45,053 nt of DNA from Escherichia phage Msk. The notes below the pieces were generated by a model. That model did no database searches. It was given only the letters and a program-made list of their open reading frames with translations, and had not been told where the DNA came from. Position numbers and translations under genes: made by a program. The stretch's first letter is position 1, and every line of letters starts with the position of its first letter. Location of the stretch: sequence record MW057918. One strand, written 5' to 3'. Shown piece after piece: positions 1,869-39,299 of this stretch.

Positions 1869-2813
1869 ATGGCCATTAAATTTGATGCAGAACAAGCAAA
1901 AATCACCGCTCACCTCGAGCAAATGGGCGTAGAAAAAGCTGATGCCGCTGGTATCTGGACCGTTAGCCAGCTCACCGCTGCTCTGAACCGTGCTTACGAA
2001 AAAGAATACGCAGAAAACTCAGTTGTTAATATCTTCCCTGTAACAAATGAAATTCCTGGTCACGCGAAGTATTTCGAATACCCAGAGTTTGATGGTGTTG
2101 GCATTGCTCAGATTATCGCTGACTACTCTGACGATCTGCCGCTGGTTGATGCGTTTATGACCGAGAAACAAGGCAAAGTGTTCCGTTTCGGTAACGCATT
2201 CCTGATTTCTACCGATGAAATTAAAGCGGGTGCTGCAACTGGTCAGTCTCTGTCAACTCGCAAGCAGGCATTGGCTTTCGAAGCGCACGATAACTTGCTG
2301 GATAAACTGGTGTGGTCTGGTTCCACTCCTCACGGTATCGTAAGTGTATTCGATCAACCGAACATCAACAACGTTGTTGCCACTCCAAACTGGAGCGTCG
2401 CGCAGAACGCGATTAATGACGTCACTGCGATGATTGATGCGGTTGAGAGCTCAACCCAGGGCCTACATCATGTAACTGACATTCTGCTTCCAGCTTCCGC
2501 TCGTCGAGTGATGCAGGGACTGGTTCCGCAGACAAACCTGAGTTACGGCGAATTGTTCACTCGTAACAACCCGGGTCTGACCATTCGCTTTATGCAGTTC
2601 CTGGACAACTACGATGGCGCAGGTGGCAAGGCTGCTCTGGCGTTTGAAAAGAATCCACTCAATATGTCTATTGAGATTCCAGAAGCTACTAACGTACTTC
2701 CTGGGCAGCCCAAGGACTTGCACTTTAAGTACCCTGTAACATCAAAGGCGACGGGTTTGATCGTTTATCGTCCACTGACGATGGCTGTAATGAAAGGTAT
2801 CACCTTCGCGTAA
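1869..2813 (+). CDS. Major capsid protein
   Basis: 314-aa ORF after scaffold/decoration genes, own promoter and strong terminators on both sides; size and position typical of HK97-fold MCP; not verified by homology search. Confidence 0.55.
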   Translation: MAIKFDAEQAKITAHLEQMGVEKADAAGIWTVSQLTAALNRAYEKEYAENSVVNIFPVTNEIPGHAKYFEYPEFDGVGIAQIIADYSDDLPLVDAFMTEKQGKVFRFGNAFLISTDEIKAGAATGQSLSTRKQALAFEAHDNLLDKLVWSGSTPHGIVSVFDQPNINNVVATPNWSVAQNAINDVTAMIDAVESSTQGLHHVTDILLPASARRVMQGLVPQTNLSYGELFTRNNPGLTIRFMQFLDNYDGAGGKAALAFEKNPLNMSIEIPEATNVLPGQPKDLHFKYPVTSKATGLIVYRPLTMAVMKGITFA

Positions 2814-2817
2814 TAAA

Positions 2818-2842
2818 CCGCCCTCTTCGGAGGGCTTTTTTT
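2818..2842 (+). terminator. Rho-independent terminator
   Basis: gccctcttcggagggcttttttt. Confidence 0.7.
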
Positions 2843-2906
2843 ACGTCTGTACCAAATGGAATTGTTGGGTTATAATCACTCAATCAGATAAACAAAGGAG
2901 ACAAAA

Positions 2907-3152
2907 ATGATTCGTTTAGAACACACTGGCGCTTGCCTTATCGTTTACAAGGGTGAGAAATATTTGCCTGGTGACACTTTCGAGGTTGATGTAATTTGCG
3001 ACGGACTCAAGCGTTTAATCGCAGAGGGTAAACTCACTATTGAAGGTGACGCTAAAGCAACCAAGCAAATCGCGCAAGAAATTGTTAGCAAGAAAAAGCG
3101 CAAAGAACCGAAAACCATCTCCGAAGCTGAGACTGGTAACGAGTACAAATAA
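2907..3152 (+). CDS. Hypothetical small head/neck-associated protein
   Basis: 81-aa ORF with SD AAAGGAG; Lys-rich C-terminus; in structural module. Confidence 0.4.
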   Translation: MIRLEHTGACLIVYKGEKYLPGDTFEVDVICDGLKRLIAEGKLTIEGDAKATKQIAQEIVSKKKRKEPKTISEAETGNEYK

Positions 3153-3193
3153 CAAACAGGGCGCTTCGGCGTCCTTTATTGTATGGAGCTAAT

Positions 3194-3595
3194 ATGAATG
3201 ATGCAATTTTGGCGTTTATGCGCTCTCTTGTTCCTGCGCTTAAAGCGGTGGATGACGAAGCAATTAATGTATGGATTGATTTGGCACGTCTATATGTATG
3301 CGAAAGCAAGTTTGGCGCAGACAAAGATAAGGCCGTAGGACTTTACGCGCTACACCTGATGCTTTCTGATGGCGCATTTAAGGGTGAGAGTGAAAGTCTG
3401 GAAACATACAGTCGAAGAATGGCAAGTTACGCACTGAGCGGTGAATTCTCTATCACCTATGATAACCAATCAGCAATCCAAGGTGATTTATCATCTTCCT
3501 CCTGGGGCCGCATGTACAAAGCACTGCTCCGCAAGAAAGGTGGCGGCTTTGGATTTATTACTTCCGCTGGTGGCGGCGGGTGCGGTTGCCGATGA
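3194..3595 (+). CDS. Hypothetical structural protein (head-tail joining region)
   Basis: ATG at 3194 preceded by GGAG; ORF track start at 3179 is a TTG extension; Gly-rich C-terminus. Confidence 0.4.
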   Translation: MNDAILAFMRSLVPALKAVDDEAINVWIDLARLYVCESKFGADKDKAVGLYALHLMLSDGAFKGESESLETYSRRMASYALSGEFSITYDNQSAIQGDLSSSSWGRMYKALLRKKGGGFGFITSAGGGGCGCR

Positions 3596-3963
3596 ACTAC
3601 AGCGAAATCGAATCAATCACTCGCTCTGGCATTGACTTCTTTAGTGATGCCAATGGCGTTTATGAAATGAGTACTGGTGATGGATATGTTGAAATCGTTA
3701 ACGGCGTTGAAGTTGAAGTTCCTTCGCAAACACTTCAGCTAAAAGGCTTGGTGCGAGAAATCAAGACGCGAGATATCGATGGCGAGTTTATCCAGTTTGG
3801 CGATAAGCGCGGAATCTTCACGGCACAGGTAGAAATCAAGCAGGGTTATCAGATTAAAGTTGATGGCGAGACTTTTGTTGTTGTTGATCCTCGCCCAGTT
3901 AAACCAACTGGTACAGTTGTTGGTTATAGACCAATTCTTCGTAGGGTGACTACTTATGGCTAG
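3592..3963 (+). CDS. Hypothetical structural protein (head-tail connector/closure candidate)
   Basis: ATGA start/stop overlap with upstream gene; position between capsid and tail genes. Confidence 0.4.
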   Translation: MNYSEIESITRSGIDFFSDANGVYEMSTGDGYVEIVNGVEVEVPSQTLQLKGLVREIKTRDIDGEFIQFGDKRGIFTAQVEIKQGYQIKVDGETFVVVDPRPVKPTGTVVGYRPILRRVTTYG

Positions 3964-16756: not shown

Positions 16757-16800
16757 GTATCGCATCCTTGCGATCAGTGTTTAGCAATTCGTGCTATTTA
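16757..16800 (-). promoter_or_regulatory. Motif-class promoter (TAAATAGCACGAATTGCTAA, 22 bp, TACTAT) for lipoprotein operon
   Basis: Perfect motif on minus strand at 16781-16800, hexamer 22 bp downstream, conserved leader ccatcgaaacga. Confidence 0.5.
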
Positions 16801-23079: not shown

Positions 23080-23106
23080 ATAAAAAAAACCTCCCAAAGG
23101 AGGTTA
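23080..23106 (-). terminator. Rho-independent terminator after primase gene
   Basis: minus strand reads acctcctttgggaggtttttttt. Confidence 0.65.
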
Positions 23107-24030
23107 GTCTATTAATTCGCTTGCTTTGTATATTCGCTTTCTTATGCCAGACTTGAAAAAATTATCATCATTTGGCATTACAACATCAAGATTGCGATCA
23201 TCAGCAACGGCAAGTAAATCAAAAGAGTGGCGAGTACAAGCGACGCGTAACTTGTAGTTTCTAAGCGCATAAGCAACCATTTCCATGTTGTAGCTGGAGT
23301 GGCAAACAAGCACGCAGCGGTTGCCACTAGCAAGATGAACGCGAACACCATCAATCCAATTATCGACCAGATAAGCGTACTCACTATCCTTAAAGGCACC
23401 AATAACAGCCACAGATTGGCGAGTATAATCTTTTGCAGCATAACTAACATCTCCCTCTTCATTTATAAAAATTACATTGCACATCTCATCTGACACGCCG
23501 TCACTATAAGCCATAAAGCACGGCACTGCGTGTATTAGTTCACCAGATTTAGCCCTACCAACATCAAAGCCGAACTCGCTATAGATACCCTCGTATATAC
23601 TGAGTGGAGTTGATTCTACTCTTTCCGTCCTTCCCATTATCTCTAAGCATCTTTCGTGGTCAATCTGAGCGCCCATTTTGTATGGTGATGTTCTTGAAGC
23701 TCTTTTGTTTGCTTTTGATATAACCTCTACTGGAACTAGATTCAGCCAATCACCAAGCGTATCTATTGTTTCACTATAACTCATTCCGGAACACTTCATT
23801 ACCCAACCAACACCAGAATCATTTCCGCACTGGTTGCATATTGCTGCGCCATTTCCCTTTTCCTGACCTAACTCATCAGTGAAGCGAAACCTATCCCTTC
23901 CAAAGCAGTAAGGGCACGGACCATGTTTCTTGCTGAGATTCTCCTTTGTCCATCCAAGGTGCGATGAGTAGAAATCACTCCACATTCCCTTCATTTTTGC
24001 TATCACTTCGTTCTTATCATGGTGACTCAT
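23104..24030 (-). CDS. Putative DNA primase (zinc-binding motif plus TOPRIM-like region)
   Basis: ATG at 24030 with GGAGGT SD; CPYCFG...CNQCG zinc-ribbon-like motif; acidic D-rich TOPRIM-like C-terminal half. Confidence 0.45.
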   Translation of the reverse strand: MSHHDKNEVIAKMKGMWSDFYSSHLGWTKENLSKKHGPCPYCFGRDRFRFTDELGQEKGNGAAICNQCGNDSGVGWVMKCSGMSYSETIDTLGDWLNLVPVEVISKANKRASRTSPYKMGAQIDHERCLEIMGRTERVESTPLSIYEGIYSEFGFDVGRAKSGELIHAVPCFMAYSDGVSDEMCNVIFINEEGDVSYAAKDYTRQSVAVIGAFKDSEYAYLVDNWIDGVRVHLASGNRCVLVCHSSYNMEMVAYALRNYKLRVACTRHSFDLLAVADDRNLDVVMPNDDNFFKSGIRKRIYKASELID

Positions 24031-24062
24031 AGTTACCTCCATAAACAATAAATGCACTATAC

Positions 24063-24102
24063 ACAATGTATAGCGCCACTGTTTATCAATTCGTGCTATT
24101 TC
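24063..24102 (-). promoter_or_regulatory. Motif-class promoter (variant AAATAGCACGAATTGATAAA, 22 bp, TATAGT) for primase
   Basis: Motif at 24086-24102 minus strand, hexamer 22 bp downstream. Confidence 0.4.
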
Positions 24103-24679: not shown

Positions 24680-26674
24680 ATGTTGCCTATCGAGAAGCTG
24701 GTTGCAAACTTCGATAAAGAAAGAATCAAGCAGATTCAGAAAGATTACCAGTTTGGCGAGATAACCCCTTACGAATTCCAGTGCGTTACATTTGACGTAA
24801 TTGGGAAGGCTATTGGCAAGTACGAAGCGCCATTTATCGCAGACCTTTCCGTATCGGCTGGTAAGACAATCATTCTTGCTATGATTGGAAAGCGAATGGA
24901 GCAGCTTGGTCTTCCTTATATGGTTCTCTCTCGCCAGTCAGAGATAATCAGCCAGAACTCAGAAGAGCTTCGTAATTTCGGGATCCGTAACAGCGTATAT
25001 TGCGCTGGCCTTAACGTTAAATCAGTTTACTACCCAACCATAGTTGCTAGCGAAGGAACTGCGGCTAATGGCTTATTTAAGGGGCTTGGTGACTATGTTC
25101 CTGCCGTTATAGCTATAGATGAATGTCACATGCTTGATACCATAGATATTGTGGAAGCCGAAGAGAATGAAGAAACATTTGAGCAAATGAGCACAAAGAA
25201 GGGCGAGATGGTTTTTAAGGATGGCGTTAATACTGGATTGCTTGGTACTGGTCGTGCGCAGTACACGCTAATAATCACTGAGATGAAGCGTCGCTGCCGT
25301 GAAAAATACGGGCGGGAGCTTCGTATATTCGGCCTTACTGGTAGCCCTTATCGAAACAATGACCATATCGTCGTCAGCAATCCAAACATCCGTGGGTTCT
25401 GGCGAAAAGCTGTGATTCATGTTCCAACAAATTACCTTGTTGATTTGGGATTCGTGGTTCCTACTGTTTATGGCGAGGTTGGCGATTTAGGTTATGACCT
25501 TAGCGAGTTTGTTCCAGACGGTAGTGATGGCGTGAAAGACTTTAGCAGAAAAGAAATGGATGCAATGGTCGCAAAGATTCACGACAACCAAACCATGACA
25601 CAAAAGATAATGCAGTTTGTCGTCAAAATACTGGAGACTCGCAACGCCGCATTGGTCACCTGCGCCGGAAAACTCCATTGCAGCGAAGCGGCTTCCGCAC
25701 TGCCTGACGGATACCCTTACGCTATTATCACCGATTCTACCGGAGAGAGGAAGCGCAGAGAGATTCTTGCAGATTGCCAGACTGGAAAGTACAAGATTAT
25801 CTTTCAGATTGGATGTCTAACCACGGGTGTAAACCAACCGCTGTGGGATACTAGCGTCATACTACGCAAGATTGGCAGTCTAACCTTAATGATTCAGCTT
25901 CTTGGTCGTGGCATGCGAAAACTAAAAAAGGCGCACATAGATGCTGGGTTCAAGAAGGAGGACCACTTGGTATTAGACTTTGCCGGAGCGCTTGATGACA
26001 TGGCAGAGCTTTACTTTGACCCGATAATTGAAGAGATTCAGGCTGAAAAGTTTAAAACATCAAGGAGGAGTGGTGATGAGGTTCGCCAGTGTCCGCAGTG
26101 TGGATATGATAACTCGCCATTTGCTCGACGCTGTAGCAATAAGATTAATGGCGTTAGATGCGATCACTTTTTCCAGTTCACAACATGTGAGGATATTACC
26201 GACCAACAAACAAAGGCGGTAATCAAGAAAGGTTGTGGAACTAAAAATGACATAGCAGCAAAAGTTTGTCGTGAATGCGGAGAAATGCTTAAAGACCCAA
26301 ACGCTAACCTGACTGGAAAGATGTATCGTCGCGGAGACTATTTGCGTGTTTATGACTTCCAGGTTGGATTAAGCAAAAATAAAACTGGTATAGTAGTTAA
26401 GTATAATATCATGGCGCACAACGGAGAGAGGTTTAACGCGTGGGAGTTCTTTAACCCAGAATCAGACCATAGGGTTTGTAGTGTGCTTTGGAAAAACTTT
26501 TGCCTTGCTCACATTGAAAATCGCGCTGAAGCAGCACGGATTGGTAAAATTCGTAACGCAAAAATGATTATGATGAATGTAGATAAATTCCGTGCTCCAG
26601 TGCAAGTTACACACAGGAAGAACGGAAAGGGGAAGGATGTGATCGCATACAAGAATTTTGGAGAATTGAAATGA
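24680..26674 (+). CDS. SF2 helicase (DExH-box) with C-terminal Cys-rich zinc-finger-like region
   Basis: Walker A VSAGKT, DECH box, later helicase-C-like region, multiple CxxC pairs. Confidence 0.7.
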   Translation: MLPIEKLVANFDKERIKQIQKDYQFGEITPYEFQCVTFDVIGKAIGKYEAPFIADLSVSAGKTIILAMIGKRMEQLGLPYMVLSRQSEIISQNSEELRNFGIRNSVYCAGLNVKSVYYPTIVASEGTAANGLFKGLGDYVPAVIAIDECHMLDTIDIVEAEENEETFEQMSTKKGEMVFKDGVNTGLLGTGRAQYTLIITEMKRRCREKYGRELRIFGLTGSPYRNNDHIVVSNPNIRGFWRKAVIHVPTNYLVDLGFVVPTVYGEVGDLGYDLSEFVPDGSDGVKDFSRKEMDAMVAKIHDNQTMTQKIMQFVVKILETRNAALVTCAGKLHCSEAASALPDGYPYAIITDSTGERKRREILADCQTGKYKIIFQIGCLTTGVNQPLWDTSVILRKIGSLTLMIQLLGRGMRKLKKAHIDAGFKKEDHLVLDFAGALDDMAELYFDPIIEEIQAEKFKTSRRSGDEVRQCPQCGYDNSPFARRCSNKINGVRCDHFFQFTTCEDITDQQTKAVIKKGCGTKNDIAAKVCRECGEMLKDPNANLTGKMYRRGDYLRVYDFQVGLSKNKTGIVVKYNIMAHNGERFNAWEFFNPESDHRVCSVLWKNFCLAHIENRAEAARIGKIRNAKMIMMNVDKFRAPVQVTHRKNGKGKDVIAYKNFGELK

Positions 26675-27090
26675 ATATTACAGACAAAGTTGATTACATT
26701 GAGTTTTACCCGGGCCCGGTTAAGTCATGTCCTAAAGAGGATGACGAACAAATCTTTTGTTCTGATTGGGTTAAGTATAACTACCCGGATATGGTATTTT
26801 TCCACTGCGTGAATGAGGGTAAGAAAACCATTGGTCAAGCAAGAAAGGACCAGGCTAAAGGATTGCTTAAAGGGGTTTCGGACTGCTTATTCCTTATACC
26901 TGAATCACTGCGAGGCAAATACCCATTTGGCGCTATAGAGCTAAAGAGAGCAGGTAAAACGCAAGCTAGCCCAGTTAGCGATGAGCAGAAGTCATTCCTA
27001 AAAAGCGTAAGAGAATCAGGTGGCTTCTCCGCAGTAGCCTATGGCAGAGGTGGCTTTCTTGCAGCATTCGCAGAGATGATTCGAAAATAG
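26671..27090 (+). CDS. VRR-NUC domain nuclease
   Basis: GAIELKRAGKTQASPVSDEQKSFL pattern typical of VRR-NUC; overlaps helicase stop. Confidence 0.6.
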   Translation: MNITDKVDYIEFYPGPVKSCPKEDDEQIFCSDWVKYNYPDMVFFHCVNEGKKTIGQARKDQAKGLLKGVSDCLFLIPESLRGKYPFGAIELKRAGKTQASPVSDEQKSFLKSVRESGGFSAVAYGRGGFLAAFAEMIRK

Positions 27091-27133
27091 CACGAATTGC
27101 TAAAGACGAATCGGTGAGGTGGTGTATTATCAA
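27085..27133 (+). promoter_or_regulatory. Motif-class promoter copy 1 of duplicated block
   Basis: aaatagcacgaattgctaaag, 22 bp, tattat, leader catcgaaacgaaa. Confidence 0.45.
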
Positions 27134-27166
27134 CTCATCGAAACGAAACACTCACAAAAAAGGTGA

Positions 27167-27266
27167 GAAGTTGCAAACGTAGGCCGGAGCAACGAAAGAC
27201 GTTTCAAAATATGATGTGACAAACCCATGAGAAAGGAAGTTGCAAACGTAGGCCGGAGCAACGAAA
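27167..27266. repeat. Two direct copies of 31-bp element gaagttgcaaacgtaggccggagcaacgaaa (27167-27197, 27236-27266)
   Basis: Exact direct repeat 69 bp apart in a non-coding region; contains gttgc/gcaac inverted repeat. Confidence 0.8.
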
Positions 27267-27294
27267 ATCACATCATAATAAATTATAACTTAGT

Positions 27295-27343
27295 AAATAG
27301 CACGAATTGCTAAAGAGGAATCGGTGAGGTGGTGTATTATCAC
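27295..27343 (+). promoter_or_regulatory. Motif-class promoter copy 2 of duplicated block, driving 27377
   Basis: Near-identical to 27085-27150 (aaatagcacgaattgctaaag...tattatca...catcgaaacga). Confidence 0.5.
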
Positions 27344-27376
27344 TTCATCGAAACGAGACGCAGAGAGAGAAATAAA

Positions 27377-31959: not shown

Positions 31960-32324
31960 TAATGTGCGTAGCTTTATCTGGATGTTCAGCAACATCTGCT
32001 CTGACCGGCTTGATTGGCAGTAAGCCAGAGATTAGCGCTCAAGCTGGTGCAGAGAACAATAAGATTGGGGTTGGGTTAACTAATAAGGTTGACTCCAGTA
32101 ACTCAAGTGATGCTTCCGTTAAGGATTCTAGTGTTGGCTCTCTGGATAGCTCTAGCGGCAAAAAGACCTCTGACAACTCGATTAAGGCATCCACAATAAC
32201 TGCTGAAAAGATTGAGATCACCAATAACGACTCTTCCGCTCTTCCGTGGATTGGAACAGGGGCTATGGGGTTGCTGGTTTTTATTCTCCTGGCAGTAATC
32301 TTAAGACGTAAAAAAGCCCCTTGA
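31935..32324 (+). CDS. Unimolecular spanin (N-terminal lipoprotein signal plus C-terminal TMD), T1 gp11-like
   Basis: Lipobox LSGC near N-terminus, Ser-rich periplasmic region, C-terminal TMD then RRKK; overlaps endolysin 3' end. Confidence 0.6.
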   Translation: MLKRIAALVMCVALSGCSATSALTGLIGSKPEISAQAGAENNKIGVGLTNKVDSSNSSDASVKDSSVGSLDSSSGKKTSDNSIKASTITAEKIEITNNDSSALPWIGTGAMGLLVFILLAVILRRKKAP

Positions 32325-32356: not shown

Positions 32357-32569
32357 TTAAAGTGGGATTAACTGCATTGATTCCACTCTAATTTCAATCC
32401 CGCGCACAAGTCCTTCCAGGCTTGTGGTGATGAATGACTCCGATACGTATCCACCATCAGAGATGGTAGCGATAATGTCACCATCACCCTGCTCTTTAAT
32501 ATCCACGGTCAGGAGGTTGGCTTTTGCTTTTGCAAGTACTGCCATCAGTTTTTCTACTGTGCTCATTTT
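32357..32569 (-). CDS. Hypothetical small protein
   Basis: Start taken at Met of MSTVEKL; ORF-track extension rejected. Confidence 0.35.
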   Translation of the reverse strand, partial: KMSTVEKLMAVLAKAKANLLTVDIKEQGDGDIIATISDGGYVSESFITTSLEGLVRGIEIRVESMQLIPL

Positions 32570-32676
32570 ATATACTCCTGTCTTAATATTATTTTCGGGT
32601 TGGCTTTTAAGCACCCGCGCTTCGATGGATTAATAATAGCAAAAGCCCTCTAGGGGCTTTTAACAAAAAGGGCTAT

Positions 32677-33012
32677 TTAATAGAATAATTCGTCGTCAGT
32701 CATTTTTCCTATGTTCATCATCTCTTTTATGTACTTGCTCTCATACCCGCTAAGTGACTCAAAGTTGAAGCTAAATGGCCTATTTAAACTCCCCTTGCTA
32801 ACAAACTCCCCACACTTACCATCAATGTATCCAGCAGTTAACATCTTTGCGCAAAACTCCTTTGAAGCAGCGCTGCAAAACTCTCTATGCGATAACCCTG
32901 CCGCCTTGCTAAATCTCTTAGAATCCTTATGTTGGTAGATGAATCGCGCCAAATGCTGGCGCGTGAAATAGGAATACGACTCGCAGAACTTAAATATATC
33001 GAGCAGGAACAT
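32677..33012 (-). CDS. Hypothetical protein
   Basis: 111-aa ORF. Confidence 0.4.
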   Translation of the reverse strand: MFLLDIFKFCESYSYFTRQHLARFIYQHKDSKRFSKAAGLSHREFCSAASKEFCAKMLTAGYIDGKCGEFVSKGSLNRPFSFNFESLSGYESKYIKEMMNIGKMTDDELFY

Positions 33013-33101
33013 AATTAACTCCAGGATATGCTTAAAACAACTACGATACCAAAAATCAATACAAAGAAATCAAGCAATATAAGTAGAATTTCAATCATCT
33101 A

Positions 33102-34685
33102 TCACCCCAGCAGTCGTGGATTAATGTAAACTTTATCACCAATCAGGCACGTATAGTTTTTCTCATCAAGCATTGGTAGTAAGTGGTCTTTAATCTTCGT
33201 CATTACTCCCGCTTGACCCTCGAACGGCTTAACCTTGCGAGCAGCTTCATATAGAGACCGGATGCCTACTACGCCTTTCCCATTTTTTACTTGCTTAATC
33301 AGAATATCAATCAGCTTATTCATCTCTGCATTGTCGCCAGCGTGACCCGCAGCGTTGGCAGATGACAAATAAGTCTTGCTAAGTTCCTGGAACATAATTA
33401 CAGCTTCCTGCATTGTATCAAGCTCAATTTCTCTCGACTTCTGAGGGCTACCGCCATTTGGGTTGAACCAGTTACGCACAGTGTGAAGAACCGCCGCAAT
33501 CCTGATTGCCTGCTTATCGAACTTACCCAACGCGCCTCGCAACATTGTGTGTGAATACTTCCCGCCGTCAGCAAGGTGCGGTTCCATTTCCTGACGAGCG
33601 CGGTTGAGATATTTCATTGCTGAATTACTAACTGTCAACTTAACTTCTTGCTCATTCATTATCTCGTGAACTAAACGGAAGTAATCAGCCTTCAACCCGG
33701 CATCAATTGGCTCATAAGTCGATTCGCCATTTTCATCAACGAATACACGCTCGCCCAGGAGTGACTTTTCACGTACAAGCAGGAAACGCTCAGATACACC
33801 GATACCACGCGCGCCAGCGTTCATGATAGCGTTGATTGTCTCATCCTGCGCAATTACAGAGATGCAACCCATAGCTACGAAGCTCATGTTGTTTTCAGCG
33901 TTAGCACGAGCGATAGATACGTTGCCAGCATCCCATGCCTTCAGTACAAGCTCGCTGTTCGTTTTCTTTGATCCGTCACCATAGGTCATGCCAAGTAGTG
34001 AGTTTACACTCGTTGCCTCATCCGAGATTACTGCAAAGTTACCCTGACGATTGTTTATTCGCGCAAGACCTTCCGGTGTGGTATCTGAAACCGGGAAAAC
34101 GATATCGCATAGTTTCTCGAGCTTTTCCTCAAGATCTTCTTTCTCCTCAAAAAGCGATTTCATCTCAGATGGTGACTTTTCCTGCTTCATCTCTTTGGAT
34201 AACGCAGATAGTTTAGCCATAATCTTTTTGCGCTCGCGCTTTCGAACTTCATTCAGTCGCTGAGTCTCGGCAATCATTGGCGCAATAGAAAGTGAGTTAA
34301 TTGCTGATTTACCAGTCGATGGTGGCTGACTCGTTACGACGTAAAGCGAGGTTGGCTGCTGAGTTCCGTGATACTCTACGGTAAAACGTCCAAGCATGGC
34401 AGCGGAAATACACCCCAGGAAGTGCATGTATGCGGACGACTCCGGGAATTGCACGCTCCGAGCAATGTTAGCTGACAGCTTACCAACAACATCAATATCA
34501 TTTCCGAGTGATATTACAGGGTACTTATCATTTGCCGCATCAATCTCGACAGGAGCCTTCCAGAATGATTGAGACTGGCGATAGCCATTTGCATTAATAG
34601 CGACGCGCAAAGGTGGAAGGTTGTCTGCGGCAGCAATTGCCATAACCTGTTCAACAGATAGTTTATCTTCGTTGAAATCAAACAT
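33102..34685 (-). CDS. P-loop NTPase of unknown function (possible replication-associated ATPase, DUF3987-like)
   Basis: Walker A-like SQPPSTGKSA and Walker B-like FAVISDEATS; N- and C-terminal segments duplicated in pseudogene 37864-38283. Confidence 0.4.
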   Translation of the reverse strand: MFDFNEDKLSVEQVMAIAAADNLPPLRVAINANGYRQSQSFWKAPVEIDAANDKYPVISLGNDIDVVGKLSANIARSVQFPESSAYMHFLGCISAAMLGRFTVEYHGTQQPTSLYVVTSQPPSTGKSAINSLSIAPMIAETQRLNEVRKRERKKIMAKLSALSKEMKQEKSPSEMKSLFEEKEDLEEKLEKLCDIVFPVSDTTPEGLARINNRQGNFAVISDEATSVNSLLGMTYGDGSKKTNSELVLKAWDAGNVSIARANAENNMSFVAMGCISVIAQDETINAIMNAGARGIGVSERFLLVREKSLLGERVFVDENGESTYEPIDAGLKADYFRLVHEIMNEQEVKLTVSNSAMKYLNRARQEMEPHLADGGKYSHTMLRGALGKFDKQAIRIAAVLHTVRNWFNPNGGSPQKSREIELDTMQEAVIMFQELSKTYLSSANAAGHAGDNAEMNKLIDILIKQVKNGKGVVGIRSLYEAARKVKPFEGQAGVMTKIKDHLLPMLDEKNYTCLIGDKVYINPRLLG

Positions 34686-34742
34686 TACTTCTCTCCGTGT
34701 TGTTTCTGAGAGGCCATTATATCAACGACCTCTTACAATTCA

Positions 34743-34761
34743 TTATCAATTTGTGATATTG
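34743..34761 (-). promoter_or_regulatory. Degenerate motif-class promoter (ATATCACAAATTGATAAT, 22 bp, TATAAT)
   Basis: Half-motif followed by tataat at 22 bp on minus strand upstream of 33102-34685. Confidence 0.3.
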
Positions 34762-34871
34762 GTTGTTCTTAATCCACTTTAGGCACATCCACAATCCAGC
34801 CCCATAAAATGCAATCTTAAGAATTTCAACCAACAAAAGGATAATAAAGTAACCACCACCAAGTAAATCAA

Positions 34872-35111
34872 TCATTTTTTAATCTCCATTTCCACAATTT
34901 CATAACTTATGTAATTATTTATCATTCCAATAAGTGATTTTTGGTATGTTTTCATATGCTCCCTAGCGGAATCTTCATCAAGATGCGCTGATATGTTGTG
35001 AAAATTGTATTCATAATCCATGCCCATTAGTATGTATATCTTATCGTGCGCCTTAATGAGGTTATTTGATTTTATTTCCCCAAGCGACCATCCTTTTCCT
35101 TTTCTAATCAT
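34872..35111 (-). CDS. Hypothetical protein
   Basis: 79-aa ORF. Confidence 0.4.
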   Translation of the reverse strand: MIRKGKGWSLGEIKSNNLIKAHDKIYILMGMDYEYNFHNISAHLDEDSAREHMKTYQKSLIGMINNYISYEIVEMEIKK

Positions 35112-35461
35112 TTGTATTGAGCCTCAAATCGATAGTCGCCGCAAACTGTAACAAAGCCAACATCTTCGTCACGATATAGCTGCCAGGCGCTGCCCTCTTT
35201 ATCGTAAATGTATCCAGCACGCTGCCCAAGTCCAGCATGGAGATCTACTTGATATCTCTTCCCTTCAGTGAAGTACTTACGAATGGATGAGCGATGATTA
35301 ACATTTGTGCAGTAAATGGTCTTTGTCTTGATGTACTTGCCCCGCTCTTCAAGGTTAATCCATTTTCCATCTTTCTTGATTTGCTCTACTCCATTTTTAA
35401 CGCGAGCTTTATAGAGTACATTTTCGTTGCTGATCCAGTTTTTAGTTAGTGTAGTAGTCAT
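35108..35461 (-). CDS. Hypothetical protein
   Basis: 117-aa ORF with 4-nt overlap. Confidence 0.45.
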   Translation of the reverse strand: MTTTLTKNWISNENVLYKARVKNGVEQIKKDGKWINLEERGKYIKTKTIYCTNVNHRSSIRKYFTEGKRYQVDLHAGLGQRAGYIYDKEGSAWQLYRDEDVGFVTVCGDYRFEAQYK

Positions 35462-35621
35462 TTTGTTACTCTCTTAGTTGTCCACATGAATTTGTTAGGT
35501 ACTGATTTGCGCACGATTCGCACAACAATCTTGTCAACCTTCTGAACTAAACCGTAAATCTTTCCATCAGGTGAGGCTCGGTAAAAAGCCTCATCAATTG
35601 CGTCATTAAAGTTGTCGAACA

Positions 35622-35801
35622 TTAAATCTCTACCTTAACGTCAAACTCTTCAATAAGATAATAATCAGGACCAATTTCAAGATCTTTATCGATACCTGAT
35701 AGTCTATTTTTTTCCAATTCAGCCAGTTCATATGTATCAAAAACACCAAAAATTTCAAAACCGTCATAGTTAGTGTAACCATTAAGTATGTAAACTTTCA
35801 T
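35622..35801 (-). CDS. Hypothetical small acidic protein (MKVYI family; paralog of 19254-19403)
   Basis: 59-aa ORF not in track; downstream of motif promoter at 35856-35874. Confidence 0.4.
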   Translation of the reverse strand: MKVYILNGYTNYDGFEIFGVFDTYELAELEKNRLSGIDKDLEIGPDYYLIEEFDVKVEI

Positions 35802-35855
35802 TTTTTATCTCCCGTTTAGATGAGATGAATATACAGGAAAAGCCCCTGAAGGGTT

Positions 35856-36017
35856 TTAGCAATTCGTGCTATTGCGTGCCTTTTCTATCGCCTTAAGCAT
35901 AATTTCGTGACTTTCCAGTAAGTCCTCTCGGAACCAGTCCCCGCAAGGCCAACCCTTTCCGCTGTATGCGCTAATAACTTCCAGATCGAAGTAGTTTATC
36001 TCAGATGGTAATAGCAT
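35856..36017 (-). CDS. Hypothetical small protein ending in NSTNC (C-terminus encoded by promoter motif)
   Basis: 53-aa ORF translated by eye; last five codons plus stop are the motif AATAGCACGAATTGCTAA. Confidence 0.3.
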   Translation of the reverse strand: MLLPSEINYFDLEVISAYSGKGWPCGDWFREDLLESHEIMLKAIEKARNSTNC

Positions 36018-36028
36018 CAGTAATCATC

Positions 36029-36214
36029 CTATTCTTCTGGTTCGAAATCCCATACGATATATTCGCCTAATCTCTGAATTTCCGCACCAGACAGAAAATC
36101 GCCTAAAGCGAAAGATCTGTCTTCATCAGTTTTAAACGACTCCAAAGGGTACCGCTCGTAAAACTTATTAATTAAGTGTGCAATGTCAAATTTATCTGAT
36201 TGATTAGTCATCAC
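36029..36214 (-). CDS. Hypothetical small acidic protein
   Basis: 61-aa ORF. Confidence 0.35.
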   Translation of the reverse strand: MMTNQSDKFDIAHLINKFYERYPLESFKTDEDRSFALGDFLSGAEIQRLGEYIVWDFEPEE

Positions 36215-36450
36215 TTCACCTCGTCAAAAGTTGCAATACCAGGAATAAACATTTTAACCTTCCAGCCTTCGATAGCAATCCAGCCAGAATCGTTCTTGTG
36301 CGGTCTCTCAGCGCCATTAATCAACCACTCGTTCGGGATTACCTTGCCGTTAATGATTAGTGGCTCAGCGTCGTATACAGAGCCTTTAACGAACGGTGTT
36401 AACACTTTTTTGTCGGTACTTGTAATGCAATTGGTGCAGCGAATTTTCAT
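36211..36450 (-). CDS. Hypothetical protein with N-terminal CxxC
   Basis: 79-aa ORF, 4-nt overlap. Confidence 0.4.
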   Translation of the reverse strand: MKIRCTNCITSTDKKVLTPFVKGSVYDAEPLIINGKVIPNEWLINGAERPHKNDSGWIAIEGWKVKMFIPGIATFDEVK

Positions 36451-36461
36451 ATCTCAATCCT

Positions 36462-36640
36462 CAAATAAATGGTAGGCATTCGGCGCATCCAAGTCCATCA
36501 CAGCACAGGAATTCATCCTCTGACTGGAATTGCTTAGCCAAATATATGTCTAACTTTCCGCGCAACACAAGGTCGGTGTAATCTTCGTTAAGCTCAATCA
36601 GTGCGCAATCGTGGCGCAATTCATCTTTATCAATCTTCAT
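36462..36640 (-). CDS. Hypothetical small Cys-rich protein
   Basis: 59-aa ORF translated by eye with CCDGLGCAEC segment. Confidence 0.3.
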
Positions 36641-36970
36641 ATCTATACCCTCGTTGTTGGTGAGTTAACTATAGCCTCGCCACCAGCACATGTCTTTAGC
36701 AAAAAGTGCTATTCATTAGATTTATGTATTGTTGCATATATTGCAATGATTCACATGATTATTGCACATACAGCAATATTGCTTCAGATGCAATGATGTT
36801 TTTGATTGTTGCGGATTGAGCAATTAAGTGGTGAGTGAGTGAATGAAAGATGGATGGACTACCATACAAGTTGATTTTGATTCTTGCTAAGCTACTTTCA
36901 CGCATACACGTTATAAAAGTTATGCCGTGTAGATGCGCCAGCTCCCCGTTGGAATCATGTACGTCTATCA

Positions 36971-37073
36971 CGCTAAATTACGCAATGGTTACATAATAAT
37001 ATCTATATATATCAACCATTTAGTACTATTATTATTATTATTATTATATACGCGTATATAATGTATATAGTGG
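36971..37073. repeat. AT-rich intergenic block with (TTA)6-7 microsatellite and TATACGCGTATA palindrome; homologous to 17611-17706
   Basis: Shared tatctatatatatcaacc-(tta)n block; palindrome atatacgcgtatat seen directly. Confidence 0.6.
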
Positions 37074-37342
37074 ATATTGGATATTGCGATAGTTTTCTAT
37101 GATTTTTTCCTACAAGTGTAGGAATTGGATGACACTGTAGGAATAAATAGGCATATATGGGCCAATGCTCCATGAAAGCCGATGTACAAGCTATACGCAG
37201 TGGTTACATTGAGCTATATCTGGGGTTTGGAACTGAAAAGCGTAAATAAATTGAATTCAACCATAAATAACAATTGATAACATGTAACCTCAATGATACC
37301 ATGCACCCATCTTAACGAGAGCAACCAATCAGGAGTATATCT

Positions 37343-37864
37343 ATGTCAAATCGCATTCAACCAGTAAGCCTTGGTGATGTTATCCGCTACATGGCTAAGC
37401 AGGCACTTAAGGCCGACAACAGGACTTTTCATGCTCCAATCAATCTTATAGCTCGCCAGGTTTACGGGCTAACGTCTGATGATATGGGTCGAATCAGCGC
37501 TGAGGATCTAGATAGTGGTGGCAAATACAGCCTGGCAAAGCTGAAGGCTTCATATGTCTCTAACACGGTTGCCAGGATGCCAGAAATTCAGGCGGCGAAC
37601 GTTCGGGCTAAGCTGTCAATCAAGGACGGAGACTTCGGGGATGATGTTGATGTTCGATGCGCATACATCACCTTGGTTGATGGGGCAATACAAACGGGAA
37701 GGAGAGTTAAAGCCAACAATCAGATTGCACAGAATGCGGTGAACGACTTCAAGGATAGAATCCTTAAGCTGATGCCATCTGTGACAGATTTTGAAGGAGA
37801 TGAGATTACAGGAGCAATCAAAGCAATCAAGATGTACCAAGAAATGATTAAGGAGACAAAATAA
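37343..37864 (+). CDS. Hypothetical protein
   Basis: 173-aa ORF, first gene after large AT-rich intergenic region. Confidence 0.45.
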   Translation: MSNRIQPVSLGDVIRYMAKQALKADNRTFHAPINLIARQVYGLTSDDMGRISAEDLDSGGKYSLAKLKASYVSNTVARMPEIQAANVRAKLSIKDGDFGDDVDVRCAYITLVDGAIQTGRRVKANNQIAQNAVNDFKDRILKLMPSVTDFEGDEITGAIKAIKMYQEMIKETK

Positions 37865-38283
37865 TGGGGATGTTTGATTTTAACGAAGATAAGCTGACTG
37901 ATGATGAGATTATGAAGATTGCCATGCGGGACGGGCTTCCACCGCTGCGGGTTGCTATCAATGCCAATGGCTATCGGTAATCACAGAGATTCTGGTGCAG
38001 TGTTGAGGAGTTGCTAAGCACAAAACTCAGCAGTAAGTTAGGTGTGGTTGTGCGCAAGATTCACGGTCAGAGCAGGAATGGTAAAGGGGTTGTAGGTATT
38101 CGATCAACATACGAAGTGCTGAGAAAGGTCCAGCCATTTGCAGGACTCGGCGGGGTCATGTATGACATGAAAAACAACATCCTGCCATCGCTACAGGACG
38201 CGGGAATCATCTGCTTAATAGGGGATAAGATTTACGTTCATCCATACGTAGTGGGCATGCATGCGATAGAAGTTGAAGAGTAG
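37864..38283 (+). pseudogene. Nonsense-mutated, internally deleted paralog of the 33102-34685 P-loop ATPase gene
   Basis: N-terminal 38 codons match MFDFNEDKL...PPLRVAINANGYR of the large gene then TAA where the large gene has Gln; same frame continues into a C-terminal segment matching NGKGVVGIRS...CLIGDK(V/I)Y. Confidence 0.6.
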
Positions 38284-38411
38284 TGCAAAGACTGGGATGA
38301 AGGTGAGCGCGCTAGTAGACTACCATACCACTTGCGGTACAGTGAGGAAGAGGTGGAGAAGGCCATCGAGTTCTTCCGGAAAGCGAAAGCTCTCCTGAAT
38401 GGTGAATATTA

Positions 38412-38627
38412 ATGCTTATAAAATGCGTTTACGTAAGGCAAGCCAATAGCCACAACCTTTCAGTTGTAAATGGCGGGATATACGTAGCTAAGCCAATACC
38501 TTGTTTTAATGGCTCATACCACATCAAGATTGATGACAATGAGTACATAGTAAAGACGGTAGGTGAAGCCCTCATGATAAAGAGCCTAGGTATCATAATG
38601 GCTAAATTCGAAATCGTTAGCAAATAG
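38412..38627 (+). CDS. Hypothetical small protein
   Basis: 71-aa ORF; stop codon lies inside motif copy at 38622-38641. Confidence 0.4.
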   Translation: MLIKCVYVRQANSHNLSVVNGGIYVAKPIPCFNGSYHIKIDDNEYIVKTVGEALMIKSLGIIMAKFEIVSK

Positions 38628-38697: not shown

Positions 38698-38886
38698 GTG
38701 ATTAACCTAACTGATGATGAGTGCATTGCTGTAATAAAGGTTTCTAAGTTGATGAGTCAAAGATTTGACACGCTTTCACTAAAGCATGGTTTTGCCTGGG
38801 AGATTTTTGATGATCATGTCAACCTGGATGACTTCATGTCAGCATCTATTAAGATTAAAGAATATATAAAAGAGGTGAGTGAATAA
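38698..38886 (+). CDS. Small ribbon-helix-helix-like protein, paralog 1 (GTG start)
   Basis: GTG after AAAGAGGAAA; INLTDDECIAVIK N-terminus resembles the two downstream paralogs; ATG at 38644 rejected because it sits between motif and -10. Confidence 0.35.
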   Translation: MINLTDDECIAVIKVSKLMSQRFDTLSLKHGFAWEIFDDHVNLDDFMSASIKIKEYIKEVSE

Positions 38887-38887
38887 G

Positions 38888-39079
38888 ATGATTACTATCA
38901 ACCTGTCAGAGGAGATGGCTGCCGACCTTCTTGATTCGCTAAGCCTGGTCAAAATTCGCTACGGAACTTACCACAGAAGCGAATCAGTAAAGGAGGTGGT
39001 AAAGCAAGTTAAGCAGCAGGTCGGAGTGGTCAAGATCGAATTGCAGAACACCCCATACGATTTTAAGAAAGGTGAATAA
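38888..39079 (+). CDS. Small ribbon-helix-helix-like protein, paralog 2
   Basis: ATG at 38888 after GAGGTGAG; N-terminus MITINLSEEMAADLLDSL has RHH-like beta-strand/helix pattern. Confidence 0.4.
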   Translation: MITINLSEEMAADLLDSLSLVKIRYGTYHRSESVKEVVKQVKQQVGVVKIELQNTPYDFKKGE

Positions 39080-39080
39080 G

Positions 39081-39299
39081 ATGATTACAATTAACCTGTC
39101 AGATAAGCAAGCAGCAGAACTGAAGTCCATGCTGTCAATCTTTGAGAAGCCAAATGACCGAGCAATTTCAAAAGAGGTTATTACTCAAATCAACAACCAG
39201 CAATTCGACGTAAGTGACTTCGAGTCATCACGACAGTACGAGGCGCTTAGCGTCAATGCGGCATACCTGACTAATTGGGATAAGGCGACTAATAAATGA
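39081..39299 (+). CDS. Small ribbon-helix-helix-like protein, paralog 3
   Basis: Identical start context AGGTGAATAAGATGATTAC; N-terminus MITINLSDKQAAELKSML. Confidence 0.4.
   Translation: MITINLSDKQAAELKSMLSIFEKPNDRAISKEVITQINNQQFDVSDFESSRQYEALSVNAAYLTNWDKATNK

Follow-up and report, generated by a model that had tools for sequence, protein, structure and literature searches.

An MCM-like DUF3987 helicase gene of a T1-like Escherichia phage and the motor-less mini-paralog derived from its termini

The DNA analysed here, a window of 45,053 nucleotides, is a rotated copy of the genome of Escherichia phage vB_ecoS_OzMSK (PQ659294.1, 45,053 bp). The 4 kb between positions 32000 and 36000 are 100% identical to that record, whose base 1 falls at window position 36772. 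OzMSK, a T1/Rtp-like siphovirus of the Drexlerviridae, originates from a laboratory lysis outbreak on BL21(DE3) (PMC13035648). The gene in question, at 33102..34685 on the minus strand (record locus CPTvBecoSOzMSK_067), starts with ATG and encodes a protein of 527 aa, the ortholog of T1 gp09. In PQ659294.1 the product, which is similar to T1 gp09 over its whole length, is labelled "putative ATPase"; the gene is not discussed in the OzMSK paper (PMC13035648). It lies within a leftward early block of minus-strand genes (32357-36640) that adjoins the lysis cassette, and its immediate neighbours are small genes of unknown function. The same early placement beside the lysis cassette is shared with phages FP, JulesPiccard, AHP42, ESCO41, P818 and e4/1c. 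The evidence presented here assigns the 527-aa protein to the DUF3987 helicases, probably as the replicative helicase of the phage, and describes a second, motor-less copy of its termini on the other side of the divergent early region.

The family assignment is clear. The protein scores 143 bits for Pfam DUF3987 (PF13148), where the cut-off is 27 (E=1.7e-41), with residues 81-430 (33396..34445, minus strand) covering profile positions 3-349 of 364, and it matches PHROG 2373, "DNA helicase", over its full length (E=3.5e-258). NCBIfam holds no model for it. Among the matches listed, PF13148 is present in 120 of 120 homologs, which are 510-532 aa long and encoded on phage contigs of 45-53 kb. The conservation of motifs was scored over an alignment of 33 homologs down to 36% identity. 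In the Walker A motif or P-loop, SQPPSTGKSA (residues 119-128; 34302..34331, minus strand), Q120, P121, P122, S123, G125 and K126 are invariant, which yields the consensus QPPSxGK[ST]. In the Walker B motif, FAVISDEATS (residues 217-226; 34008..34037, minus strand), F217, S221 and E223 are invariant, and D222 is found in 88% of the homologs. Because these residues are invariant over such a range of divergence, both are real motifs rather than chance matches. An S-E-R-F motif (residues 298-301; 33783..33794, minus strand), with E299 and R300 invariant, resembles the SRF motif of MCM. All of S298-E-R300-F, together with R383, is conserved without exception, and the two elements are candidates for the arginine finger and sensor-2 roles; for SERF, the role of arginine finger is proposed by comparison with the established MCM motif.

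An AlphaFold2 model built from the homolog alignment (predicted local distance difference test score, pLDDT, 89.1; predicted template modelling score, pTM, 0.87) gives the order of the domains. A three-helix unit (~10-41) is followed by a linker, an alpha/beta ATPase core, a helical lid and a C-terminal winged helix (472-521). The N-terminal unit (residues 1-48; 34542..34685, minus strand) carries the motif LPPLRVAINANGYRQSxSFW and consists of the model helices 11-21, 25-33 and 36-41. It was delimited by tblastn and by alignment with the mini-paralog copies, with which it is common, as is the winged-helix domain (residues 465-527; 33105..33293, minus strand). The P-loop helix leads straight into an inserted helical hairpin, which is long and charged (residues ~129-195; 34101..34301, minus strand; model helices 126-166 and 172-191). 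Its ~65 residues are less conserved (0.56 majority frequency), and it is the origin of spurious coiled-coil matches of the protein.

The top 50 Foldseek matches of the model in the PDB are essentially all MCM subunits (best E=2e-6). About 250 residues of the DUF3987 domain superpose on MCM AAA+ modules, and core and lid together have the MCM-type topology in the predicted structure. The winged helix resembles the origin-binding winged-helix domains of ORC and Cdc6. As modelled, the 527-aa protein is a member of the MCM fold class and not of the MCM family; the link to MCM is based on the predicted structure alone and is a relationship of fold.

These results bear on an original prediction made from the letters of the window. 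It had described a 527-aa minus-strand open reading frame (ORF) with Walker A-like and Walker B-like motifs, placed it in the minus-strand early block apart from the primase/helicase module, and guessed at a DUF3987-type replication ATPase. All of this stands: 7-9 kb separate the gene from both the primase (23104-24066, minus strand) and the superfamily 2 (SF2) helicase (24680-26674, plus strand). The same prediction called the role unclear and saw no recognisable helicase signature. Both statements are overturned, the one on the role largely so, by the full-length match to PHROG 2373, the MCM-like AAA+ fold with its C-terminal winged helix and the literature on superfamily 6 (SF6). Homology searches and structure prediction, which it had proposed as checks, lead to a well-supported DUF3987/MCM-like helicase assignment.

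The gene is also strongly conserved. Across seven phages, the ratio of nonsynonymous to synonymous substitution rates (dN/dS) is 0.008-0.056; such very strong purifying selection is what a core enzyme typically shows. Matches to the helicase termini occur in 740 phage records, and the synteny is kept in all seven of the seven genomes inspected. T1 gp09 (AAP49990) and the Drexlerviridae orthologs of PHROG 2373, such as rtp67 of Rtp and bas03_0056 of JulesPiccard, are whole-length orthologs of 522-531 aa with the same synteny beside the lysis cassette and no substantive difference from the OzMSK protein; they are annotated as "DNA helicase" or "putative helicase". The helicase gene itself is therefore ordinary, and it carries a "DNA helicase" label in several public records. 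In FP, the gene is annotated (2336-3952) with a product of 538 aa, the result of an 11-codon N-terminal extension absent from every other ortholog.

The second copy lies on the plus strand. A tblastn search against the window gave two matches to the helicase: 37870-38013 for residues 1-48 (67% identity, E=6e-16), and 38068-38256 for residues 465-527 (56% identity, E=2e-18). The two pieces adjoin each other in one frame, and the whole ATPase (residues 49-464) is missing. The resulting motor-less mini-paralog (37864..38412) consists of the N-terminal unit, the winged helix and a family-specific helical tail. A tblastx comparison of the window with itself found it to be the only strong protein-level duplicate, and a larger inverted duplication of the divergent early arms was ruled out, as only the helicase and mini-paralog segments match. 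The translation of this copy reads MGMFDFNEDKLTDDEIMKIAMRDGLPPLRVAINANGYR, stop, SQRFW...AIEVEE, stop, CKDWDEGERASRLPYHLRYSEEEVEKAIEFFRKAKALLNGEY, stop. With FP, the closest intact relative, as the reference for numbering, the first in-frame stop (TAA, codon 39; 37978..37980) replaces a Gln of the relatives (CAG in FP), and the second (TAG, codon 140; 38281..38283) an invariant Trp (TGG in FP). The mini-paralog is annotated in the record as two small coding sequences, _004 (37864-37980) and _005 (38050-38283).

With the first stop read as Gln, the copy matches phrog_7327 ("unknown function") at E=2.5e-61 over profile positions 1-131 of 179. Members of this family are mostly intact ORFs of 174-190 aa, unlike the OzMSK copy with its two in-frame stops. 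The gene is an intact single ORF of 174-189 aa in 11 relatives, namely FP, JulesPiccard (Bas03), P818, XT34, 50EP, BUCT-XGG-1, CJ19, e4/1c, AHP42, UDF157lw and ESCO41, and a profile search recovered more than 120 intact clusters (171-192 aa, on contigs of 44-52 kb), none with a Pfam domain. A near-full-length match is found in ~109 of the 740 matching phage records. The model of the mini-paralog (pLDDT 83.5) has the same secondary-structure elements as the helicase termini, and its winged helix gives matches to replication-type winged helices. The original prediction was correct that the helicase gene is the only one in the window with a paralog. Its description of that paralog as pseudogenised holds in so far as the OzMSK copy carries two recently acquired nonsense codons; it fails for the nature of the gene, which belongs to a conserved family of motor-less mini-genes and did not arise by decay of a full-length copy.

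The gene directly upstream of the mini-paralog is a DUF7174 gene (phrog_4841; 37343..37864, plus strand; Pfam DUF7174 E=1.3e-50), an arrangement found in all 14 phage records and 3 metagenomic contigs inspected. The stop and start codons of the two genes often overlap, and the arrangement suggests translational coupling and a functional link. In JulesPiccard (mini-paralog at 822-1361), the last ~12 residues (…MDLYRRWNAVGK) diverge from the conserved FYRKAKxLLNGE tail, probably as a result of a late frameshift, and this divergent tail inflates the dN/dS of that mini-paralog branch to ~0.6.

The history of the mini-paralog can be read from its identity with the helicase. This is ~60-76% for the N-terminal unit and ~40-50% for the C-terminal unit, and it is flat, being the same for same-genome and cross-genome pairs. 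Gene conversion and co-evolution of helicase and mini-paralog are thereby ruled out, and the flat identity argues for one old duplication, without gene conversion or cognate co-variation, followed by an internal deletion that would have removed the whole ATPase. Across seven genomes, the helicase termini are 78-100% identical and the mini copies 32-96%. Among intact orthologs, the dN/dS of the mini-paralog is 0.12-0.43, which is 5-10 times more relaxed than that of the helicase and still clearly constrained. An exhaustive search with hidden Markov models against 1.84 billion representative proteins recovered 45 clusters, consisting of intact mini-paralogs, T1-type helicases and ~25 short fragments; no other architecture with the N-terminal and winged-helix modules was found among these proteins. 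The family phrog_7327 is thus a conserved, ancient internal-deletion derivative of the helicase in which only the terminal modules, putatively for docking, have been kept. No paper on a derivation of phrog_7327 from helicase termini was found, although no search was aimed at this point.

The mini-paralog has been lost repeatedly, with at least seven independent disruptions across the relatives. Besides the nonsense codons at Gln39 and Trp140 in OzMSK, there is a stop at codon 14 in TR2, at 40 in CEB_EC3a, at ~149 in Veterinaerplatzvirus 2005IV (representing 43 vB_EcoS records of the same length, 44,219 bp) and at 52 in the metagenomic contigs L026 and L027, and a frameshift at ~43 in the metagenomic contig L025. 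In Rtp (NC_007603.1), the replacement is nearly complete: at 1064-1383, the annotated 19-aa rtp2 (MFDFTEEKLTDEQVMRIVE) is the stub of the mini-paralog, 19 codons long, and the place of the rest has been taken by rtp3, whose product has a lipoprotein-like signal (…LTGC…). Of the six nonsense lesions, five are located in the segments between modules, 37-56 and 132-160 (P=0.02 after correction for stop-codon opportunity); since the limits of these segments were chosen with the lesions already in view and n=6, the clustering is a lead only.

In OzMSK itself, the branch dN/dS is ~0.13 and the frame is kept throughout, including the tail at 38284-38412 after the second stop. For these two reasons, the OzMSK mini-paralog has either been inactivated very recently or its split pieces are still functional. 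In the latter case, a 38-aa N-terminal peptide and a 77-aa winged-helix piece (from a GTG at 38050) would be made and would work separately. That the record annotators assigned ribosome-binding sites to both pieces speaks for this, as do the conservation of frame and sequence past both stops, the low branch dN/dS and the clustering of lesions between the modules. The low dN/dS is, however, explained equally well by very recent inactivation, and the clustering is subject to the limit given above. The gene is also dispensable, because only 19 codons are left of it in Rtp and it seems to be missing from many relatives, near-full-length matches being confined to 109 of 740 records. A working split gene is a possibility rated as less likely than not. 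Read-through of the stops by a phage suppressor tRNA was ruled out, as the only tRNA is Arg(TCT).

Helicase and mini-paralog lie on either side of the divergent intergenic region between the early arms (36641-37342). This region holds the densest GCAAT/ATTGC cluster of the window, with 7 sites within 110 bp (36740-36850); the 500 random placements made for comparison gave at most 6. A perfect palindrome, GCAATATTGC, is located at record base 1 within the cluster region, and an AT-rich (TAT)n tract follows ~250 bp beyond it, at ~37020-37070. An operator array, a pac region and an origin are all possible readings of the region. The marginal GCAAT/ATTGC cluster was the only sign of origin-like iterons near the helicase gene.

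For the role of the helicase, the other replication genes of the phage are relevant. The DnaG-type primase, a T1 gp24 homolog on the minus strand (23104..24066; Pfam Zn_Ribbon_Prim E=8e-12, in agreement with the record annotation), is the presumed partner. The SF2 helicase on the plus strand (24680-26674), a T1 gp22 homolog of 664 aa, has Helicase_C as its only clear match, accompanied by weak C-terminal matches to zinc ribbons and a ParB_C-like segment that are below the Pfam cut-offs. Its gene overlaps that of a VRR-NUC nuclease by 4 nt (24680-27090), a pairing that suggests fork remodelling or recombination more than fork unwinding. A Cro-like regulator, RecE, Erf and SSB complete the set, and no DNA polymerase gene was found in the annotation inspected. 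Given this gene content elsewhere in the genome, the DUF3987 protein is the only candidate of the phage for a ring-type helicase.

The DUF3987 proteins have been described as divergent SF6 (MCM-like) phage helicases with a winged helix-turn-helix at the C terminus, often fused to or adjacent to primases, and a replicative helicase role has been proposed for them (Kazlauskas et al., PMC4889955). One member, the PriCT-DUF3987 protein AgaPH, is an oligomeric 5'->3' helicase whose activity requires ATP and both of its Walker motifs, A and B; it also binds the cognate primase-polymerase (PMC11724360). AgaPH, which belongs to a mobile element carrying a prokaryotic Argonaute (pAgo), shares with the OzMSK protein the DUF3987 ATPase core, Walker A and B and a small C-terminal domain (PMC11724360). 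It has an N-terminal PriCT domain and is encoded beside a primase-polymerase (PrimPol) belonging to the AEP (archaeo-eukaryotic primase) type. The OzMSK protein has the 45-aa three-helix unit in place of PriCT, and the primase of the phage is of the DnaG type and encoded 9 kb away. The likeness to Cch of SCCmec (5dgk) and to the SaPI5 primase-helicase (7ola) is much weaker than that to MCM.

The 527-aa protein is probably (at about 0.75) a hexameric AAA+ fork helicase of the DUF3987, MCM-like SF6 type that cooperates with the phage primase and a host polymerase. The analysis shows to which family the protein belongs, how it folds, that its motifs are invariant, that it is under very strong constraint and that its synteny is conserved; hexamer formation, helicase activity, polarity and partners are inferred. 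In the proposed mechanism, K126 of Walker A, E223 of Walker B and R300 of SERF, the last acting in trans, would bind ATP at the subunit interfaces of the hexamer, and the ring would translocate on single-stranded DNA and thereby open the fork at which the phage replicates. The three-helix unit at the N terminus and the winged helix at the C terminus may serve as protein- or DNA-docking modules, by which the ring would be loaded at the origin and/or the DnaG-type primase, encoded separately, would be recruited. Synthesis of DNA would fall to a host polymerase, which is proposed because the annotation inspected contains no phage polymerase gene.

Several points weigh against this reading. Sequence and family-profile searches of the PDB gave no significant solved structure. 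The similarity to MCM is confined to the AAA+ module and the winged helix, with a template modelling (TM) score of ~0.35 and 11-18% identity, and Pfam MCM (PF00493) is not matched even at E<=1. In contrast to the archaeal MCM and the eukaryotic MCM2-7 and MCM8/9, the protein is without the N-terminal OB/zinc tier, its N-terminal 100 residues being all-helical in the model, and it has the charged hairpin after the P-loop helix. Polarity cannot be deduced from the relatives. MCM helicases move 3'->5', whereas AgaPH, the only DUF3987 protein tested, is reported to unwind 5'->3'. Unlike in many DUF3987 systems, the primase is neither fused nor adjacent (~9 kb away, on the same strand), and the genome encodes a second helicase (SF2, 664 aa), with which labour may be divided. 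The literature searches found no experimental work on the 527-aa protein, T1 gp09 or a Drexlerviridae ortholog. A role of the mini-paralog as a competitor or bridging adaptor, finally, is something we only infer.

T1-like phages need recombination-dependent replication and concatemer formation, and the main true rival to a fork helicase is a motor for these processes. As a recombination or branch-migration motor of the ComM or MCM8/9 type, the 527-aa protein would drive them together with RecE, Erf and SSB. The literature on DUF3987, however, connects the family with primases and replication, and the SF2 helicase and the VRR-NUC nuclease already form a more typical pair for fork remodelling and recombination. 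Without the 527-aa protein, moreover, the phage would encode no ring-type replicative helicase, although it may use a host helicase. Such a motor is therefore considered improbable. A defence or anti-defence ATPase unrelated to replication, an option also raised by the original prediction, would fit the position of the gene, surrounded by small early genes of unknown function, and the abundance of P-loop ATPases among defence systems. PADLOC, however, gave no significant match; the sole match, to the JetC coiled coil (E=0.004), lies inside the charged hairpin. Synteny in 7 of 7 genomes, 740 matching phage records and extreme purifying selection (dN/dS 0.01-0.06) are what one sees in core genes rather than in genes engaged in an arms race, and this role is very improbable. 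Literature searches for a Drexlerviridae helicase that triggers defence or is essential gave nothing relevant.

A further proposal refines the fork-helicase reading rather than excluding it. SaPI Rep, SCCmec Cch, papillomavirus E1 and P4 alpha are self-loading initiator-helicases, and the protein may be another: its winged helix would recognise the origin, perhaps within 36641-37342, and the protein would melt it and load without a separate loader. The likeness of the C-terminal winged helix to those of ORC and Cdc6 is in favour of this, as are Cch and the SaPI5 primase-helicase among the structural neighbours, the lack of a recognisable initiator or loader gene in the annotation, and the GCAAT/ATTGC repeat cluster and (TAT)n tract between the two paralogs. 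On the other hand, the cluster is barely above chance, winged-helix domains of MCM-type proteins often bind proteins and not DNA, and an origin in this region is a candidate only. Self-loading is therefore held as a tentative addition to the fork helicase.

As for the mini-paralog, the favoured hypothesis, held with less than even probability, is that it shares its partners with the helicase termini, as a competitor or an adaptor. One conceivable role, which we regard as rather doubtful, is that of a functional "headless helicase" that occupies the partners of the helicase, be they the primase, a loader, origin DNA or a host factor. It could then regulate the timing of replication, or it could be a decoy directed against a host system by which the helicase is sensed.

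Some features of the window lie outside these subjects. A 15-bp palindromic motif, TAGCA-N5-TGCTA (extended consensus AAATAGCACGAATTGCTAAA), occurs at 18 sites against 1.7 expected, a number reached in 0 of 100 shuffles. The exact sites are at 16782, 19180, 23040, 27088, 27298, 35857, 36697, 38625 and 39671, and 9 further sites have one mismatch. Almost all are intergenic or at gene boundaries, in both transcription arms, including upstream of the early block with the helicase gene. With no T-run after it, the motif looks like a regulator-binding or RNA-processing site rather than an intrinsic terminator. Just past the VRR-NUC gene (27080-27360), two direct-repeat pairs are nested: a 70-nt pair (27080-27149 and 27290-27359; 91% identical), which contains the TAGCA-N5-TGCTA motif, and a 45-nt pair (27167-27211 and 27236-27280; 87% identical). 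A weak protein-level direct repeat of 25 aa (38873-38947 and 39066-39140; 64% identity, tblastx) is located in the rightward early block of small ORFs. A scan for sigma-70 promoters was not above shuffles (13 found, 16 expected).

T1-like phages are common laboratory and fermentation contaminants and candidates for phage therapy. With the present assignment, the vague label "putative ATPase" is upgraded to a well-supported MCM-like replicative helicase, a core gene of this group. With members in about a hundred of the sequenced Drexlerviridae genomes, the family phrog_7327 offers a handle on what the helicase termini bind, and it also bears on how T1-type replication starts or is regulated, for which no description of an origin or loading mechanism was found. 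The intact, split and deleted alleles of the mini-paralog in close relatives amount to a natural experiment. If the mini-paralog is a functional headless helicase, the combination of purifying selection with at least seven independent losses would mark the mini-paralog as a conditionally beneficial accessory gene, and the clustering of lesions between its modules would mean that the modules can still act when separated.

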